From the IMG/VR virus record IMGVR_UViG_2681813223_000024: 19,623 nt of DNA, one strand, 5' to 3'. Every line of letters begins with the position of its first letter. Position 1 is the first letter of the stretch. The notes under the pieces are model-generated. The model worked only from the letters and a program-made list of their open reading frames with translations, was not told where the DNA came from and did no database searches. This document shows, piece by piece, positions 2,607 to 11,880 of the stretch. The translations under genes and the position numbers were made by a program. This DNA is from a virus. Its lineage: Duplodnaviria > Heunggongvirae > Uroviricota > Caudoviricetes.

Positions 2607-3998
2607 ATGACTGAGAACACGACTCCAACAGCAGACTTTAGTCCTAGTAAAAGATTTTTTGTAAGTATGCTAACTCGAGATATCGACTTAAACGATGCCA
2701 TACTTGATCTGCTTGATAACTGCGTCGATGGGGCTTTACGTACAATAAAAGACACAAAAAAAACTTCAAAACCATATGAAGGATTTTATGCGAAACTTAC
2801 GATTAATAAAGATGTCTTTATTATAGAAGACAATTGCGGAGGTATCCCTAAAAGCTTCCGAGAATATGCTTTTAAAATGGGACGACCCCATCAAAAAGAA
2901 GAAGAAAATGAAGGCACCGTTGGCGTCTATGGTATTGGTATGAAAAGAGCCATTTTTAAAATGGGTAGAGATTGCTCAATACAATCGAATAATCCCGATG
3001 GCGCATTCACTGTAGATATAACACCTGATTGGATCGATGGTGATGGTTGGAAAATACCGATGCACGAGAGTGACTATGATAACAAAAATCCAACAGGCAC
3101 AACTATAGAGATAAAAAAACTCCATTCTAATGTGGCACAAAAATTTAATGAGAGCACATATCTTACTGATCTCTTTTTACAGATAAAACACTCATTGTCA
3201 TTTATTATTCAAAAAGGATTTAAAATAGAATTAAATGGAGTTGTTGTTGAACATAATCCGATTAACATCATAACTGATCATTCTAAAATAGAACCATACA
3301 TATATAAAGCTAAAATAGACGATGTTGATATCGATTTAGTTGTTGGCTTCTATAAAAATTTAGAAGATGACAATGATGATGTTTTAGAAAAAAGGAGTTC
3401 TGATGATGCTGGATGGACTGTCATTTGCAATGACCGCGTTGTTCTATATTGTGATAAGACACATCTCACAGGTTGGGGCTTTGCTAATGTACCAAGGTTT
3501 CATACCCAATTTATAGCAATTTCTGGGGTTGTTCGCTTTACCAGTAAAAACCCAGAAAAATTACCAATAACAACAACGAAACGAGGTGTCGATCTTAGTT
3601 CTACATTGTACAATGATGTACGAAATAAAATGATTGAAGGGATGATGCATTTTATTCGATTCACCAATCAGTGGAAAGGTGAGCATCTTGAAGAAGGGAA
3701 AAAATTACTTAAGTCAGCTCAGTCACATGAAGCTCAATCTTTATTTGAAATTACCCCACAATCAACTCCAGAAGATAAAAAAAATAACTGGTCCAACCCT
3801 AATAGAAACAAAAATGAGTGGCGATATACACCTAAGCTGCCTACCCCAGTAAAAAAAAGCTCTACTGTACGAATAATCTTCACCAGAGAGAAAGAAGATG
3901 TTAAAATTTTATCTAAATATTTCTTTGGACATGAAGATGCTAGCGCTTCTGATGTGGGGATGCAATGCTTTGATACGGTGATTGAAGAGGTGAAGTGA
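2607..3998 (+). CDS. GHKL / Bergerat-fold ATPase (MutL/MORC/Hsp90-type ATP-binding domain) with C-terminal extension, 463 aa
   Basis: N-terminal region shows the ordered GHKL motifs: DLLDNCVDGA (motif I, ExxxNxxDA type), IEDNCGGI (motif II, DxGxG type), GVYGIGMKRA (motif III, GxxGxG), PTGTTIEI (motif IV, TGT). Purine-rich SD (agagag) 6 nt before the ATG. Confidence 0.85.
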   Translation: MTENTTPTADFSPSKRFFVSMLTRDIDLNDAILDLLDNCVDGALRTIKDTKKTSKPYEGFYAKLTINKDVFIIEDNCGGIPKSFREYAFKMGRPHQKEEENEGTVGVYGIGMKRAIFKMGRDCSIQSNNPDGAFTVDITPDWIDGDGWKIPMHESDYDNKNPTGTTIEIKKLHSNVAQKFNESTYLTDLFLQIKHSLSFIIQKGFKIELNGVVVEHNPINIITDHSKIEPYIYKAKIDDVDIDLVVGFYKNLEDDNDDVLEKRSSDDAGWTVICNDRVVLYCDKTHLTGWGFANVPRFHTQFIAISGVVRFTSKNPEKLPITTTKRGVDLSSTLYNDVRNKMIEGMMHFIRFTNQWKGEHLEEGKKLLKSAQSHEAQSLFEITPQSTPEDKKNNWSNPNRNKNEWRYTPKLPTPVKKSSTVRIIFTREKEDVKILSKYFFGHEDASASDVGMQCFDTVIEEVK

Positions 3999-4987
3999 TG
4001 TCTGGACAATACATTCCCTATCACTTAAGGCATAATAAGTCTATTGATAGAGAGATTTTTCTCGAAAGCCTAAACCTCTTAAGCAAAAGACTAAATATTC
4101 AAGAATATACATATATAGGTTTTGGTGGTCCGATGCTTGAAGATTTTAGAATCATGCATAATCGTATCGCTCTTTCTGATATGATTTCTCTCGAAGAACA
4201 AGAGTCTACTCACATCAGACAAAAATATAATTTGCCTTATAATTGTATTGATTGTAAGCTAATATCAGCTCATGACTTTATTCTTGATTATAGTTTTTCT
4301 AAACCATCAATAACATGGTTAGACTATGCCTCCCCGAAAAAAATACAAACGGATCTAGATGATATACACTTACTAAGTACTAAAGTAAGCTCTTTTGATA
4401 TTTTGAAGGTCACCTTCCCCATAAATCCTAGTTCTTATTACCAACGTAGAGTTGGAGAAAGTTTAGATATTTTTAAAGAAGCTTTTATTAATTCATTAAA
4501 ATCATTGCTTGGGAAAAAGTATCTTGATTTTAATCTTCAGATATCAAATGCAGATCTTTCAGATCGTAAGATTAAAGCTCTTTTAATACGAATTATTACA
4601 AACGCTTTTAGATCAGCAATAGAACGTGGTCTTTCAGGACGTAAGGATAAGATTCAGTATTACCCATTATCCTTAAATCAATATAATGATGGCAGTCATA
4701 CCATGTTGACAATATCAGGTTTTTTCTCCTCAGAACAAGAATATATAGAGTTATCTAAGGCATGCGACCTTTCTAACTGGCAATTTTATTCAACAAATTG
4801 GGAAGACGTGCAAGAAATAGCAATACCAACACTAACAATTAAAGAAAAGATAAATTTAGATAGTAAACTGCCTGATAAAGAAGCATATCAGGCAGCCGCT
4901 GAAGAGTTCTCTTTAAACGAAAATGAACGGGATAACTATTATAAATACTATAGGTTATACCCTAACTTCCAAAGAATTATGGTTTAA
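3998..4987 (+). CDS. Uncharacterised protein, translationally coupled partner of the GHKL ATPase (329 aa)
   Basis: ATG at 3998 shares its A with the upstream TGA; AGGTGA lies 4 nt upstream. An in-frame GTG at 3995 is the alternative start used in the ORF track. Long uninterrupted ORF in the same AT-rich context. No catalytic motif recognisable by eye. Confidence 0.75.
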   Translation: MSGQYIPYHLRHNKSIDREIFLESLNLLSKRLNIQEYTYIGFGGPMLEDFRIMHNRIALSDMISLEEQESTHIRQKYNLPYNCIDCKLISAHDFILDYSFSKPSITWLDYASPKKIQTDLDDIHLLSTKVSSFDILKVTFPINPSSYYQRRVGESLDIFKEAFINSLKSLLGKKYLDFNLQISNADLSDRKIKALLIRIITNAFRSAIERGLSGRKDKIQYYPLSLNQYNDGSHTMLTISGFFSSEQEYIELSKACDLSNWQFYSTNWEDVQEIAIPTLTIKEKINLDSKLPDKEAYQAAAEEFSLNENERDNYYKYYRLYPNFQRIMV

Positions 4988-6106
4988 ATATTCGGGCTGT
5001 ACTCTTTTATTTAATAAATTGTACAGCCCCTTTAATATATATTCAGCAACTATTGGTGACACGCTATTTCCTATTTGTCTGAAACTATGCCATTTAGTTA
5101 CATGAAAGCGAAACCAATCAGGGAAGCCTTGTAATCTAGCAGCTTCTCTTGGTGTAATCACTCTTGGATGATAAGGGTGGATCGGCCTGACGGCTTGAAA
5201 GCTTCCTTTATCTCTAGCGGTTCCCGCCCTTAAAGTCGGGCAAAAACCATTTGGATCTAATCTTGTAGATCTTGAAATTTTATCAGTTTCCCCAAAAGAT
5301 AAGGAAGCATAACGCTCTTGGACGATTTTGCTATGTAATGTTCCGGTACATCCAGATATGATATTATTTTTTAACTTAGCGATCGATTCTGTATCACCAA
5401 CATTCCGAGGGATCTGCCCCCATAATTTTTCATAAAATCCCCCTTTTCGATCTTTTTTAATTGTTCGCCAACTCTCAGAGTCTGATTGCCAATTGGCATC
5501 GATAATATCTGGTAATCCATACAAAGCATCTTTTACAGTAACCGGATCAATCATTTTAGGCATAAATACTTCATCTGAAATATCAAGCTTCAATGATTTT
5601 TTTACACCGATAAAAAAATATCTAGTTCGAATAGTTGGAGCACCATAATCAGATGCTTTTACCTTGATGGGATCAAGAATATCATAATCACCGCTAACCA
5701 AATTAAATGCTTTATTTCTAATGCCAGAATATTTCTCTTGCATAATACCTGGAACATTTTCTGCCAAAAAGAATAATGGCTGTAATTCTGATACTAAACG
5801 GTAGAAATGCATGTAAAGCTGATTCCTGCTATCATCAGGATTCCCCTTGCCTATTGAACTAAATCCTTGGCACGGAGGACCGCCAATAATACCATCTATG
5901 GGCATATCGTTTTTAAAAAAACCCTTAATTATTTCTGCATTTAGTAAAGAAACATCTTCTTGGACGTGCAAACTTCTTGGAAAATTAATTGCGTGAGTAT
6001 TAATAGCATGTTGATCAATTTCAACTGCCATTTTAACATCAAATCCAGCACGTGCAGCACCAAGACTTAGACCTCCAACGCCAGAAAACAAATCTATTAC
6101 ATTCAT
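4955..6106 (-). CDS. DNA (cytosine-5)-methyltransferase (383 aa)
   Basis: Canonical C5-MTase motifs in order: DLFSGVGG (motif I, AdoMet binding), GGPPCQGFS (motif IV, catalytic Cys), ENV (motif VI), QIGNSV near the C-terminus, with a long variable region between. 3' end overlaps the partner gene convergently by 33 bp. Confidence 0.9.
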   Translation of the reverse strand: MNVIDLFSGVGGLSLGAARAGFDVKMAVEIDQHAINTHAINFPRSLHVQEDVSLLNAEIIKGFFKNDMPIDGIIGGPPCQGFSSIGKGNPDDSRNQLYMHFYRLVSELQPLFFLAENVPGIMQEKYSGIRNKAFNLVSGDYDILDPIKVKASDYGAPTIRTRYFFIGVKKSLKLDISDEVFMPKMIDPVTVKDALYGLPDIIDANWQSDSESWRTIKKDRKGGFYEKLWGQIPRNVGDTESIAKLKNNIISGCTGTLHSKIVQERYASLSFGETDKISRSTRLDPNGFCPTLRAGTARDKGSFQAVRPIHPYHPRVITPREAARLQGFPDWFRFHVTKWHSFRQIGNSVSPIVAEYILKGLYNLLNKRVQPEYLNHNSLEVRV

Positions 6107-9088: not shown

Positions 9089-9835
9089 TTACTTCTCAAT
9101 ACCTGGCTGACCAACATTCGGGCGCCAGCTCTCCCAGTTAAAATTCACCCAGCGCCCGCCGTTCATGGTCATGCGATCCATAATCCGCTCGCCGAGCAAT
9201 GTTTTCATGGCCTCATAGTTCAGGTTTGTCAGCATCCCCACGCTGCGCATTGACGCTGTCCGGCGATCAACAATCTGGTGCAGTACCACCTGCTCGTTTT
9301 TCGTCTCGCGCTGAATACCAATTTCATCAAGAACCAGCAGATCAACTTCGCACAGTTCCCGCAAAAATTTTTCGCCTGACTGCCCGTCGTCATAGCTGGC
9401 GTGCAGGGCGCTCATAACATCAGCCACGGTAACCACAATCACTGTCTGGCCATCTTTCAGCAGGCGATTCCCGATAGCCGCCGCCAGATGGTTTTTTCCG
9501 GTACCAGGTTTTCCGCTGAACGCGAAATTTGTGCATCCGGTAACCAGTTCGTCAGCGATAGATTTCGCCTGACTCAACGCGTATCGCTGGCCGTCGTTCT
9601 GCACCTGGTAATTCGCAAACGAGCATTTGCGGTGCAACGGCTGTATGCCGGAGCGATTCAGGATTTTTTCCACCCGCAACTGACGATTCTGACGGTTGAT
9701 CTCCTCACAACGTTTCTGGCCTTCTGCAAGTTGCCACTCGCGCCACTCCGCCACCGTCCTGAATGGCGCGGTTACATGTGGCGGGGCCAGTCTGCGGATA
9801 CGTTCCAGAACGCCGCCTGTCGCAATATTTTTCAT
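9089..9835 (-). CDS. ydaV: DnaC-like replication helicase-loader ATPase (P-like), 248 aa
   Basis: Walker [11 protein letters not shown] and Walker B LLVLDEIG present; GGGGGT SD upstream; immediately downstream of the O-like gene. Confidence 0.8.
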
Positions 9836-9841
9836 GGTCTG

Positions 9842-10630
9842 TTACCCCCTGAAGCCTGGCGGGATCGCACTGTCCGGAAACGAGACGGTGTTAATCTGTC
9901 GGAGCAACGTCTCTGGCCGAACACCTTTCGGCGCGAACAAGCCCTGGTATTCATTGGCGATGCTGTGTCGAATCACCTGCTCAGGTGAAAAACCCTGCTG
10001 GCGGAATTTTTCCAGCTCCCGTATCGCCCCGTTAGCGCCCTGCTCCGTTCGAATCGGTTTTCGCAATGCCTGCCTGAACTGAACCCACTCATGCCAGAGT
10101 GTTTCCGGCAACCAGTCAGGCAGCTCGATAGCCTCCGGTTCGAATTTTTTAGACGCTCGTTTTTGGCGAGGGGGATTTAGGGGGAGATAAGTATTTATAT
10201 CTTCCTCTTTCTCTTCCTCTGGTAACGCTTTTTGATCCGTTTTTGTAACGCTGGCAGCGTTACCTTTTCGTTTCAGTTCTCGTATTTTTGTTACTCTCTC
10301 GTTTGTAACCGCCCGTTTTTTAGAGCTTTTCCCGTTATGGCGCTCAAAGTTAGGAAGCGACAACACACCATTAGTTTCGACCAGCCATCCAACCTGAATT
10401 AACGCATCAGCAAAACCAGCCATAAAAGTGATGCGATCTATTGCACTTTTTGTAACGCCGCGAGCGTTACACTCTGCGTTACCGTCTATCATTTGTTGAT
10501 CCGCCCATGCCCAGAAGCGAATGACTTTCCCTAATGCGGCATCTGGATCAATATTCAGAATCTCAGCAAGCCTGAATATTTCCGGCTTATCCGGCGTAAT
10601 AACTTCGAGCTTTATCCAGTTTGAAGCCAT
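9842..10630 (-). CDS. ydaU: Replication initiation O-like protein (262 aa)
   Basis: Position between the YdaT gene and the DnaC-like gene; N-terminus MASNWIKLEVITPDKPEIFRLAEIL matches my recollection of Rac YdaU. Contains two of the three iteron-like palindromes. Confidence 0.7.
   Translation of the reverse strand: MASNWIKLEVITPDKPEIFRLAEILNIDPDAALGKVIRFWAWADQQMIDGNAECNARGVTKSAIDRITFMAGFADALIQVGWLVETNGVLSLPNFERHNGKSSKKRAVTNERVTKIRELKRKGNAASVTKTDQKALPEEEKEEDINTYLPLNPPRQKRASKKFEPEAIELPDWLPETLWHEWVQFRQALRKPIRTEQGANGAIRELEKFRQQGFSPEQVIRHSIANEYQGLFAPKGVRPETLLRQINTVSFPDSAIPPGFRG
10245..10263. repeat. Iteron-like palindrome copy A (GTAACGCT-GGC-AGCGTTAC)
   Basis: One of three copies of TGTAACGC-N-GCGTTAC(A) spaced about 200 bp apart; this copy is inside the ydaU-like coding region. 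Confidence 0.5.
10452..10470. repeat. Iteron-like palindrome copy B (GTAACGC-CGCGA-GCGTTAC)
   Basis: Second copy, inside the ydaU-like coding region. Confidence 0.5.
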
Positions 10631-10642
10631 TTGTTTTCACCT

Positions 10643-10663
10643 TGTAACGCTCGCAGCGTTACA
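10643..10663. repeat. Iteron-like palindrome copy C (TGTAACGCT-CGC-AGCGTTACA, perfect 9-bp arms)
   Basis: Third copy, in the ydaT/ydaU intergenic region. A second perfect inverted repeat TACCGAAC-aaaaca-GTTCGGTA follows at 10673..10694. Confidence 0.5.
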
Positions 10664-10707
10664 TTTAACTGATACCGAACAAAACAGTTCGGTACGATTA
10701 ATTTCAA

Positions 10708-11130
10708 TCAATGCACTACGACAGAATCGCTAGGAGAACCGCCGCCGCTGAAATGTGCTTTACGGTAAACGGCCTGGACTGCATCATCATGCGCATCAAT
10801 TGCCGTACTCAGTGCATCCTGTGCCGCCAGTAATGCACGGCGTTCCAGGGTATCGAAGATGCAGAGTCGGTGACGCAGCTCGCGAGGAAGAATTGCCAGA
10901 ACCGCAGGGATCAGTTTCTGAATTTTTTCCCTTTGCGCATTCGTTTCACCTTTCAACCAACGATGATAGATATTCTGCTGATTGTTCCAGTCCTTGCCTG
11001 GTACCAGGGGCAATTCGCCGCCCCCCTGGCGCAGATATTCTTCAGTAATTGCGTTAGCGACCCACGCCTGCCCTTTTTCGGCTGCCAGGGCTAACAACAC
11101 TGATTCGATGTGCTCATGCTTGATTTTCAT
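10708..11130 (-). CDS. ydaT: YdaT-like protein of the cro-ydaT early-right operon (140 aa)
   Basis: Protein MKIKHEHIESVLLALAAEKGQAWVANAITEEYLRQGG... matches my recollection of Rac YdaT; its start overlaps the Cro-like stop as ATGA. Confidence 0.75.
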   Translation of the reverse strand: MKIKHEHIESVLLALAAEKGQAWVANAITEEYLRQGGGELPLVPGKDWNNQQNIYHRWLKGETNAQREKIQKLIPAVLAILPRELRHRLCIFDTLERRALLAAQDALSTAIDAHDDAVQAVYRKAHFSGGGSPSDSVVVH

Positions 11131-11381
11131 GAATCAACTCCCATCAGCTTTTTCGTAGTAGTTTTATTTCTGCCAATAGTTAAAATTGCATCGGCAGAAA
11201 ATAATCCGTTTGATGCATGAGCGATTTTTTCAGCGTAATTTGTTTCGCCGGTATATTCTGTGCGAGGCAATTTACCGTTATCCATCCATTTGTAGATTGC
11301 TCTTTGGCTGACACCACAAACGTCGGCCACAACAGAAACGCGAACAGTTTTGATTACATCTTCAAGTGTTTTCTGGTTCAT
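11127..11381 (-). CDS. Cro/YdaS-like HTH regulator (84 aa)
   Basis: Internal start at MNQKTLEDV (ATG 11381) with GAGGG 5-6 nt upstream; HTH-like segment VSVVADVCGVSQRAIYKWM; divergent from the CI-like gene. Confidence 0.65.
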   Translation of the reverse strand: MNQKTLEDVIKTVRVSVVADVCGVSQRAIYKWMDNGKLPRTEYTGETNYAEKIAHASNGLFSADAILTIGRNKTTTKKLMGVDS

Positions 11382-11460: not shown

Positions 11461-11880
11461 ATGGTTCATGAAGATAAAGCGCGTAAAGAGTTCGCCAGTA
11501 GGCTTGCGCTAGCCTGTGAAAACGCTGGTTATGAACAACATGGAAGGCAGGCAGAAATTGCCCGTCGAATGAAATTAACACCAAAAGCGGTTAGCAAATG
11601 GTTTAATGGTGAAACAATTCCTCGCCGAGAGAAATTAAGGGAATTAGCAACACTCATTGGAACAACACCAACCTATCTTTTGGGAGAGGATACAGAAGAA
11701 AGTGGACAGATACGTTTCTATCAGGAGTTAAATCCAAGACAAAAAATCATCATTGACCTTCTGGACGAGCTCCCTGACAGTGAGACAGATGAACTTTTAA
11801 AAACTCTTGAGGAGAAAAAACAGAAGTACAATGCAATTTACGAAGAGTTAGCACGAAAGAAAAAACAAAAAGCCTCTTAA
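11461..11880 (+). CDS. XRE-family HTH repressor, CI/RacR-like (139 aa)
   Basis: HTH segment RQAEIARRMKLTPKAVSKWFNGETIP; divergent from the Cro-like gene and co-oriented with the early-left operon. Confidence 0.7.
   Translation: MVHEDKARKEFASRLALACENAGYEQHGRQAEIARRMKLTPKAVSKWFNGETIPRREKLRELATLIGTTPTYLLGEDTEESGQIRFYQELNPRQKIIIDLLDELPDSETDELLKTLEEKKQKYNAIYEELARKKKQKAS

Follow-up and report, generated by a model that had tools for sequence, protein, structure and literature searches.

Which protein reads the three palindromes that lie in and just upstream of an O-like replication gene in the viral record IMGVR_UViG_2681813223_000024 (IMG/VR, Caudoviricetes), and do these palindromes mark a replication origin? 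The stretch of DNA analyzed here, hereafter referred to as the window, is 19,623 nucleotides (nt) long and consists of a Rac-like prophage integrated beside ttcA; when its 3-kb segment 9000-12000 was used as a query, 100% identity was found to bovine and human Escherichia coli chromosomes, such as those of E2863 and O111 RM9322. The gene in question (9842-10630, minus strand) encodes a 262-amino acid (aa) replication initiator annotated as a 'hypothetical protein', which is composed of an N-domain, a disordered linker and a DnaT-like/O-like C-domain. Judging from a comparison of this locus with its homologs, the palindromes are probably iterons for the gene's own 262-aa product, in which case the window would harbor a lambda-style origin located inside its initiator gene. 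We favor this reading because the motif follows the N-domain across phyla, its copies within a locus vary in step, and other repeats take its place in genes with another N-domain. An earlier note on this DNA had proposed that the palindromes bind the O-like initiator, had linked them to oriJ of Rac and had offered a YdaT/CII-like regulator as the alternative ligand. On comparative grounds (N-domain linkage, concerted change and repeat replacement), the palindromes are indeed the best candidates for initiator-binding sites and an origin probably lies in the gene; the parts concerning oriJ and YdaT, in contrast, did not hold.

The presence of three palindromes in and upstream of the O-like gene was confirmed. 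An exact search of the window for TGTAACGC-N(0-8)-GCGTTACA retrieved two copies, at 10451-10471 and 10643-10663, where none was expected from 200 shuffles; tolerating mismatches added a third copy at 10244-10264 (TGTAACGCTGGCAGCGTTACc, one mismatch), yielding three matches against 0.10 expected. The spacer is 5 nt long in all three, and start-to-start spacings of 207 and 192 base pairs (bp) agree with the description of these elements as palindromes of about 20 bp, roughly 200 bp apart, except that the first copy is imperfect and begins at 10244 rather than at 10245. Palindromes 1 and 2 are located inside the 262-aa gene, and palindrome 3 in the 77-nt gap separating it from ydaT. Palindrome 1 (TGTAACGC-TGGCA-GCGTTACc; 10244-10264) encodes the peptide KGNAASVTK of the disordered linker. 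Palindrome 2 (TGTAACGC-CGCGA-GCGTTACA; 10451-10471), referred to as site A in the following, is part of the sequence coding for the N-domain, where it specifies CNARGVT, in a low-confidence loop between helices. Palindrome 3 (TGTAACGC-TCGCA-GCGTTACA; 10643-10663) is non-coding, abuts the Shine-Dalgarno (SD) sequence AGGTG (10638-10642) and ends 13 nt upstream of the initiator ATG.

The half-site GTAACGC was found 11 times in the window versus 1.5 copies expected, with 8 of the 11 copies falling within 10222-10662. Two of them, at 10222-10228 and 10476-10482, are single half-sites beyond the palindromes that had been overlooked in the earlier note. The former belongs to a terminal half-site (10221-10228; GGTAACGC on the plus strand, GCGTTACC in gene sense), and the latter to an extra half-site situated 12 nt from palindrome 2 (10476-10483; GGTAACGC in gene sense). 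The terminal half-site directly adjoins a 21-nt polypurine tract, AGAGGAAGAGAAAGAGGAAGA (10200-10220, purine in gene sense on the minus strand and pyrimidine on the plus strand), which encodes PEEEKEED and is itself followed by an AT-rich stretch (10176-10199, gene sense ...GATATAAATACTTATCTCCCCC). Next to palindrome 1 lies a low-GC, strand-asymmetric stretch (10265-10312) with degenerate half-sites, GTTAC (10290-10294) and TGTAACCGC (10304-10312), whose role in binding is uncertain because conserved peptides, RVT and AVT, are encoded there too. Over 10200-10340, the GC content is 32-45% and the AT skew -0.4 to -0.73, with a GC minimum of 32.5% at 10260-10299. Read in gene sense, the cluster in the window is GGTAACGCtgccaGCGTTACAaaaacggatcaaaaaGCGTTACCagaggaagagaaagaggaagatataaatac; this matches the layout conserved among homologs (see below), which places palindrome 1 at the center of the mid-gene half-site cluster. 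A description of the locus as three equivalent iterons about 200 bp apart is thus incomplete: from its layout, the likely origin core is the mid-gene cluster together with the polypurine/AT-rich tract (~10170-10320), whereas palindromes 2 and 3 look auxiliary.

This motif architecture is conserved in, and linked to, loci encoding the N-domain of the initiator. A degenerate-pattern scan of genome contigs, with one genome per species, yielded 80 further loci sharing 43-94% aa identity, whereas scans of viral contigs returned almost only near-identical E. coli prophages; the diversity of the sample hence comes from the genome contigs. Altogether, N-domain homologs from many phyla (43-100% aa identity) are encoded at 86 loci, which originated from Enterobacterales, Pseudomonas, Xanthomonas, Betaproteobacteria, Planctomycetota and Verrucomicrobia (including Akkermansia), with some metagenome-assembled genomes (MAGs). 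Across these loci, 433 of the 511 hexamers GTAACG/CGTTAC map to three zones, -50 to -1, +100 to +200 and +300 to +450 relative to the start codon, over a background of about 1-2 hexamers per 50-nt bin elsewhere. In five phage loci with the N-domain, half-site positions within the gene coincide with those of the window. One conserved feature is the counterpart of palindrome 2, GGTAACGC-N5-GCGTTAC, at gene nt ~148-168, which is present in nearly all homologs; the other is a mid-gene cluster that combines a palindrome with one to three half-sites in direct orientation and closes with GCGTTACC, a polypurine tract such as TAGAGAAGAGAAGAGAAGAGAAGA coming immediately after. In the complete genome of phage TL-2011b (44.8 kb), the only GTAACGC cluster is that of the rep gene, which accounts for 5 of 10 copies, the others being scattered singletons (chance level, 4.2).

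The mid-gene cluster was recovered in 80 of 84 loci, with two to six half-sites each; two loci retain one half-site and two have none. Of 76 spacings between direct half-sites, 61 measure 11-12 bp; the members of inverted pairs start 13 bp from each other, and in the conserved pattern the final GCGTTACC leads into a polypurine (GAAGA)n/AT-rich tract. Purine runs reach 10 nt or more in 67 of 84 loci (median length 17 nt; in controls, the median is 7 and the 95th percentile 11), and the longest run begins 1-2 nt past the last inverted half-site in 51 of the 84. The cluster occupies gene nt ~320-410, corresponding to aa ~107-137, a segment that spans the last helix of the N-domain (aa 110-121) and reaches into the disordered linker. 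We propose that the polypurine tract is part of a putative DNA-unwinding region. The upstream palindrome has a narrower distribution, being confined to Enterobacterales loci with an intergenic gap before the gene (12 loci, window included), where extra direct half-sites often lie 12 bp upstream of it; it is absent where the preceding gene abuts (taATG). Among close relatives of the window, 61 of 69 distinct sequences carry all three palindromes at the same positions, with variation residing mostly in the 5-nt spacers; since small indels confound per-site variability beyond gene nt ~360, use of these sequences was confined to this tally and to the patterns at the upstream palindrome and site A.

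Because the peptides encoded by palindromes 1 and 2 are alike (KGNAASVTK and ECNARGVTK), a peptide repeat had to be excluded. The sites are conserved at the DNA level. Codons at site A are fixed against the genes' own usage, with Gly encoded by GGT in 71/71 cases (background 21%), Ala by GCT in 61/71 (23%) and Val by GTT in 65/70 (29%), despite a mean GC content of the loci of 56%. In the linker, GTAACG is read in more than one frame, codon phase 1 accounting for 99 copies and phase 0 for 20 copies over 17 loci; the window, for instance, reads GGT AAC G (Gly-Asn) where TL-2011b reads GTA ACG (Val-Thr). Moreover, a 12-nt duplication at site A (10472-10483 in the window; L153-L162, Enterobacterales) creates a third half-site at the price of four inserted residues (e.g. 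ECNA) in a loop of the DNA-binding domain. Together with the non-coding nature of palindrome 3 and the location of the sites in segments predicted to be unstructured, the fixed synonymous codons, the varied reading frames and this duplication argue that conservation acts on DNA rather than on the peptide. A larger insertion, with another GTAACGC at gene nt 194, was noted in L163 and L164.

Variation in the half-site is concerted within a locus. In L232, GTCACGC/GCGTGAC replaces the usual sequence at site A and at every linker copy, and GTCACGC is likewise found at both site A and linker in L219. L181 carries the asymmetric pair GTGACGC...GCGTAAC plus GCGTCACC, the same at site A and linker, while in L204 the asymmetric pair occupies site A and the linker copies are of the GCGTCACC type. 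As a result of these changes (gene nt ~146-200 and ~335-410), the Asn encoded at site A becomes His or Asp. Concerted variation of this kind would be expected if one co-evolving factor read all copies. The four loci constitute natural specificity variants with switched half-sites; an alignment search for recognition-helix changes tracking the variant half-sites of L232, L219, L181 and L204 yielded no interpretable pattern from these few variants.

The initiator itself appears to be a composite protein. No family was matched in Pfam (expectation value (E) of 10 or less; whole protein and both halves) or NCBIfam, whether Phage_rep_O, DUF1376 or any other. PHROG 2509, 'replication initiation protein', matches the full-length initiator, whereas PHROGs labeled 'O-like' or 'primosomal' match its C-terminal part, the match to the 'O-like' phrog_678 being limited to aa 76-236; homologs of the initiator are annotated PF17948. 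In a sequence search of the PDB, aa 170-262 resembled the C-terminal, single-stranded DNA-binding domain of DnaT (2ru8_A, E 2e-4; 9zbt_D, E 7e-4; weak but consistent matches) and no other region was matched. BLASTP against YdaU of E. coli K-12 produced an alignment limited to aa 139-262 (124 aa, 79% identity), with unrelated N-terminal halves. The 'YdaU-like' label that had been given to this gene is therefore warranted in its C-terminal half only and, by alignment, the N-terminal half is a different module. When phage genomes were searched by tblastn, the N-domain (aa 1-145) was found in E. coli phages TL-2011b and ZX5, Xanthomonas phage CP2, Pseudomonas phage VW-6S, Vibrio and Ralstonia phages and epsilon15, with C-termini that vary, and the C-domain in the 'lambda gpO homolog' of Gifsy-2 (E 3e-22 with aa 89-262), in O of mEpX1 (E 2e-14) and in the YdaU-type phage 683R6. 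An AlphaFold 2 model of moderate confidence (predicted local distance difference test score, pLDDT, 69.6) shows the N-domain (~aa 1-120) as a helix-helix-beta-hairpin with a winged-helix-like layout, making a DNA-binding fold plausible; in this model, residues 50-57 encoded by site A form a loop between helices and the linker (aa 124-144) is disordered, both with pLDDT below 50.

Genes that have only the C-domain in common with the initiator carry other repeats at the same place, which suggests that specificity follows the N-domain. In the Gifsy-2 gene, this mid-gene position is occupied by about seven ATCCCCGAAAACGGGGAT repeats of the lambda type, and no GTAACG cluster is present; K-12 ydaU and phage 683R6 contain three copies of TGTTCAAACA mid-gene, two direct and one inverted, and again no GTAACG cluster. 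GTAACGC was also missing from the 5.5 kb of K-12 Rac that were searched. K-12 Rac otherwise resembles the window in its prophage type, ttcA integration site, operon order (racR / ydaS-ydaT-initiator-ydaV), C-terminal 124 aa (79% identical) and repeats in the mid-gene linker. In contrast, the N-terminal half of YdaU is unrelated, DUF1376 is not matched by the initiator of the window, and the repeats differ. The proposed link to oriJ of Rac accordingly fails along with the label, and because the N-terminal half is unrelated to YdaU, the putative origin of the window is, on this comparison, a different specificity cassette and not K-12 oriJ. Homology to K-12 ydaU resumes at a mosaic junction (~10140-10180 in the window; 2620-2660 in the K-12 locus, L233), from a shared TAAATCCCCC onward. 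This junction, which also reflects the boundary between the domains, lies right past the purine/AT-rich tract and points to an exchangeable 'N-domain plus origin' cassette set on a common C-domain. In K-12 ydaU itself, the repeats are found at L233:2512-2577 (NC_000913.3, ~1421511-1421576) as two direct TGTTCAAACA 33 bp apart, one inverted copy and degenerate copies, followed by an AT-rich stretch; it is plausible that these linker repeats correspond to the position of the classical oriJ iterons.

A mechanism may be outlined in which the winged-helix-like N-domain would recognize the half-site GTAACGC, initiator dimers binding the palindromes and further subunits occupying single half-sites one helical turn (11-12 bp) apart. 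The core would extend over palindrome 1, the terminal GCGTTACC and the polypurine/AT-rich tract next to it, in DNA that also codes for the inter-domain linker, and the initiator-DNA complex formed there may destabilize the neighboring tract. The DnaT-like/O-like C-domain would then bring in YdaV, a DnaC-like protein, and host DnaB, while palindromes 2 and 3, as auxiliary sites, may form loops with the core or keep expression of the initiator in check. Of this scheme, the binding step, the opening of the purine tract and the functions given to sites 2 and 3 are inferred by comparison.

Placement of an origin inside its initiator gene is a well-known principle. In lambda, iterons and an AT-rich tract are located in the middle of O, and extra iterons lengthen the O protein, by 13 aa in the case of Shiga toxin (Stx) phage O (PMC7466680). 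The locus described here resembles ori-lambda in having repeats with inverted symmetry inside the initiator gene, in the segment encoding the linker between N- and C-domains, with a strand-asymmetric AT/purine-rich tract adjoining them and a helicase-loader gene following; gain of an iteron also lengthens the protein, by 4 aa here as compared to 13 aa in Stx O. The C-domain is moreover homologous to O-like proteins of lambdoid phages such as that of Gifsy-2. The likeness to the lambda O family does not extend to the N-domain, which matches no Pfam family, Phage_rep_O included. Other differences are the iteron itself (GTAACGC-N5-GCGTTAC versus ATCCCTCAAAACGAGGGAT in lambda), a cluster that mixes direct single half-sites with palindromes at 11-12 bp, a candidate unwinding element made of a (GAAGA)n polypurine tract, and conserved sites ~200 bp (site A) and ~400 bp (upstream palindrome) away from the core, which lambda lacks. 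What is new is a distinct, strikingly widespread class of N-domain and iteron in which the half-site is nearly invariant, a (GAAGA)n tract is conserved, and further conserved sites lie ~200 and ~400 bp off the core.

Iteron plasmids (pPS10, F, R6K, RK2) offer a second point of comparison, in that they too combine direct repeats near an unwinding element with inverted repeats, one of which stands just upstream of the initiator gene. In iteron plasmids, the inverted repeats preceding rep serve autorepression. Their Rep proteins are of the winged-helix type, and the N-domain is predicted to be winged-helix-like (from the model, with Foldseek E values of at least 0.25), but neither a sequence relationship nor a clear fold relationship to the initiator was detected. 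The half-sites are also much shorter here and spaced 11-12 bp rather than ~22 bp apart, the origin would lie inside coding sequence, and no promoter is predicted at the upstream palindrome whereas the plasmid inverted repeat sits at the rep promoter. With DnaT, finally, the initiator shares a resemblance of its C-terminal 90 aa to the DnaT C-terminal domain (weak match), as does DopC, an O-like protein with a DnaT_C domain (PMC5509034). DnaT, in contrast, has no origin-binding N-domain of the initiator's kind, and the strong iteron pattern is a feature of the present locus.

A number of observations weigh against an origin bound by its own initiator. Our survey of the literature, including that on the repeats and origins of epsilon15, phiV10 and TL-2011b, found no description of this iteron family and no binding or origin experiments. 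Foldseek matches of the N-domain model to winged-helix structures in the PDB (MarR, SelB, Sso10a) were all weak (E of at least 0.25), too weak for assigning a family, and confidence in the model is moderate. Many of the 86 loci are related, those of Pseudomonas especially, and counts based on them do not represent independent events. Promoter prediction at the upstream palindrome gave no sigma-70 promoter for the window or for the enteric loci L155, L158 and L163. The three sites, ~200 bp apart, are far more dispersed than the tightly packed iterons of lambda, and the palindromes would also form RNA hairpins of 8-9 bp (-11 to -16 kcal/mol; z-scores -1.2 to -3.1), while symmetric changes are accounted for equally by a hairpin and by a dimer site. 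The dispersion, in particular, would suit a protein that binds the sites merely as operators or roadblocks limiting its own transcription or translation, the true origin being elsewhere in the prophage. Palindrome 3 is immediately upstream of the SD sequence and start codon, a dimer bound at palindrome 2, 160 nt into the gene, could block elongation, and the autorepressing inverted repeats of iteron plasmids provide a precedent. We nevertheless consider this unlikely, as the universally conserved element is the mid-gene cluster abutting the purine/AT-rich tract, which is an origin layout, and most homologs are devoid of the upstream site. Autorepression at palindrome 3 is further unsupported because no promoter is predicted there. 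The repeats of Gifsy-2-type and YdaU-type genes also occupy the same mid-gene position, which is that of the origin in lambda (PMC7466680), and in TL-2011b, whose genome is complete, there is no second GTAACGC cluster.

The folding of each palindrome into a hairpin, the retention of arms but not loops among close relatives, the pair-preserving symmetric changes of L232 and L219 and the position of palindrome 3, 1 nt from the SD sequence, would all be compatible with structures in the mRNA of the early operon through which the initiator gene is stabilized, processed or translated differently. Such structures leave unexplained, however, why direct half-sites at 11-12 bp and the extra inverted copy are conserved and co-vary with the palindromes. 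The asymmetric pair GTGACGC...GCGTAAC argues against a simple hairpin, the arms giving a G.A mismatch in RNA at site A and linker of L181 and at site A of L204; the conserved polypurine junction has no obvious role in RNA, no Rfam family matches, and a hairpin at palindrome 3 leaves the SD sequence uncovered, all of which renders this explanation improbable. Recognition by another regulator of the prophage, be it the CII-like YdaT, the Cro/YdaS-like protein or the RacR-like repressor, is less probable still. In its favor, ydaS-ydaT immediately precede the sites within the operon, and DNA binding by YdaT, including at sites in Rac, has been demonstrated, the YdaT proteins of Rac and CP-933P binding (T/A)TGATT-N6-AATCAA (PMC11879457). 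A perfect YdaT box, TTGATTTTCATGAATCAA, matching the CP-933P consensus TTGATT-N6-AATCAA, is however present at 11120-11137, over the ydaT start codon, as reported at the same position in K-12 Rac (PMC11879457), and the GTAACGC palindromes differ from it in both sequence and spacer. The pattern also occurs, always within the initiator gene, in other phyla with different or no CII/YdaT genes and in phages devoid of ydaT such as TL-2011b, and K-12 Rac possesses YdaT, YdaS and RacR yet no GTAACGC. The YdaT/CII-like alternative of the earlier note was abandoned on these grounds. As to the sites having no function in DNA, palindromes 1 and 2 share a reading frame and encode the similar peptides GNAASVTK and CNARGVTK, and GNAxxVT is conserved in the family, as would be the case if a repeated (G/C)NAxxVT(K) were needed by the protein. 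Against this, synonymous positions are fixed in spite of codon bias, the motif is found in other frames (17 loci) and in non-coding DNA, the peptides fall in segments predicted to be disordered, and the half-site change from GTAAC to GTCAC or GTGAC alters the encoded Asn to His or Asp; with a chance expectation of about zero, neither a peptide repeat nor coincidence is a credible source of the pattern.

If these palindromes are indeed iterons of the initiator, the replication origin and initiator specificity have been located for a common Rac-like prophage of pathogenic E. coli (O111/Shiga toxin-producing E. coli type) and for a large family of temperate phages and prophages, spread over several phyla, with an initiator N-domain that no Pfam family covers. 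Origins of this class could then be annotated by a simple signature, in which GTAACGC half-sites lead to GCGTTACC and a (GAAGA)n tract. Rac-type prophages would appear to swap 'N-domain plus origin' cassettes while keeping a C-terminal domain that recruits the helicase loader, the K-12 repeats suggest where oriJ sits in ydaU, and the locus would illustrate clearly how the DNA sites bound by a protein can constrain that protein's own coding sequence. More tentatively, it is possible that all these elements make up one very widespread class of phage origin, extending from E. coli to Planctomycetota and Akkermansia, with a near-invariant GTAACGC, a (GAAGA)n tract and an uncharacterized winged-helix initiator, in which the sites dictate the GNAxxVT loop and the linker, and in which site A and the enteric upstream site form a looped or self-limiting three-site complex distinct from the compact array of lambda.

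With respect to distribution, loci from Planctomycetota, Verrucomicrobia and Akkermansia (L166-L185 and others) carry the N-domain, GTAACGC sites and (GAAGA)n tract in prophage-like regions at ~50% aa identity, which on sequence comparison would be an unusually broad host range for a single origin/initiator specificity. The N-domain and sites were also seen in MAG contigs labeled Saccharibacteria or Peregrinibacteria, although such candidate phyla radiation (CPR) labels are possibly binning artefacts. A search of a plasmid database for the module returned two matches only, both phage-like circular elements, and is thus uninformative on autonomous plasmids. These two circular 'plasmid' records with this initiator, the 41-kb element of Pusillimonas sp. 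T7-7 (NC_015459.1; L234) and E. coli pE16EC1016-8 (L235), include CII, NinB and Rha-type genes and could be phage-plasmids or induced phage DNA.

In the window, the initiator gene belongs to an early operon on the minus strand that comprises a Cro/YdaS-like gene (11127-11381), the CII-like ydaT (10708-11130), the initiator gene itself and ydaV (9089-9835), which encodes a DnaC/IstB-like ATPase that the initiator presumably recruits as helicase loader. A gene for a RacR-like repressor (11461-11880) diverges from this operon. Between the ydaT stop codon and palindrome 3 lies an 8-bp inverted repeat, TACCGAAC-N6-GTTCGGTA (10673-10694), that was scored as terminator-like on the plus strand by a scan but lacks a T-run on the gene-sense strand. 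Further away, a cargo block at 2607-6106 encodes an ATP-binding protein (463 aa), an O-methyltransferase (330 aa) and a convergent DNA cytosine methyltransferase (383 aa), and may represent a modification or defence-related island.

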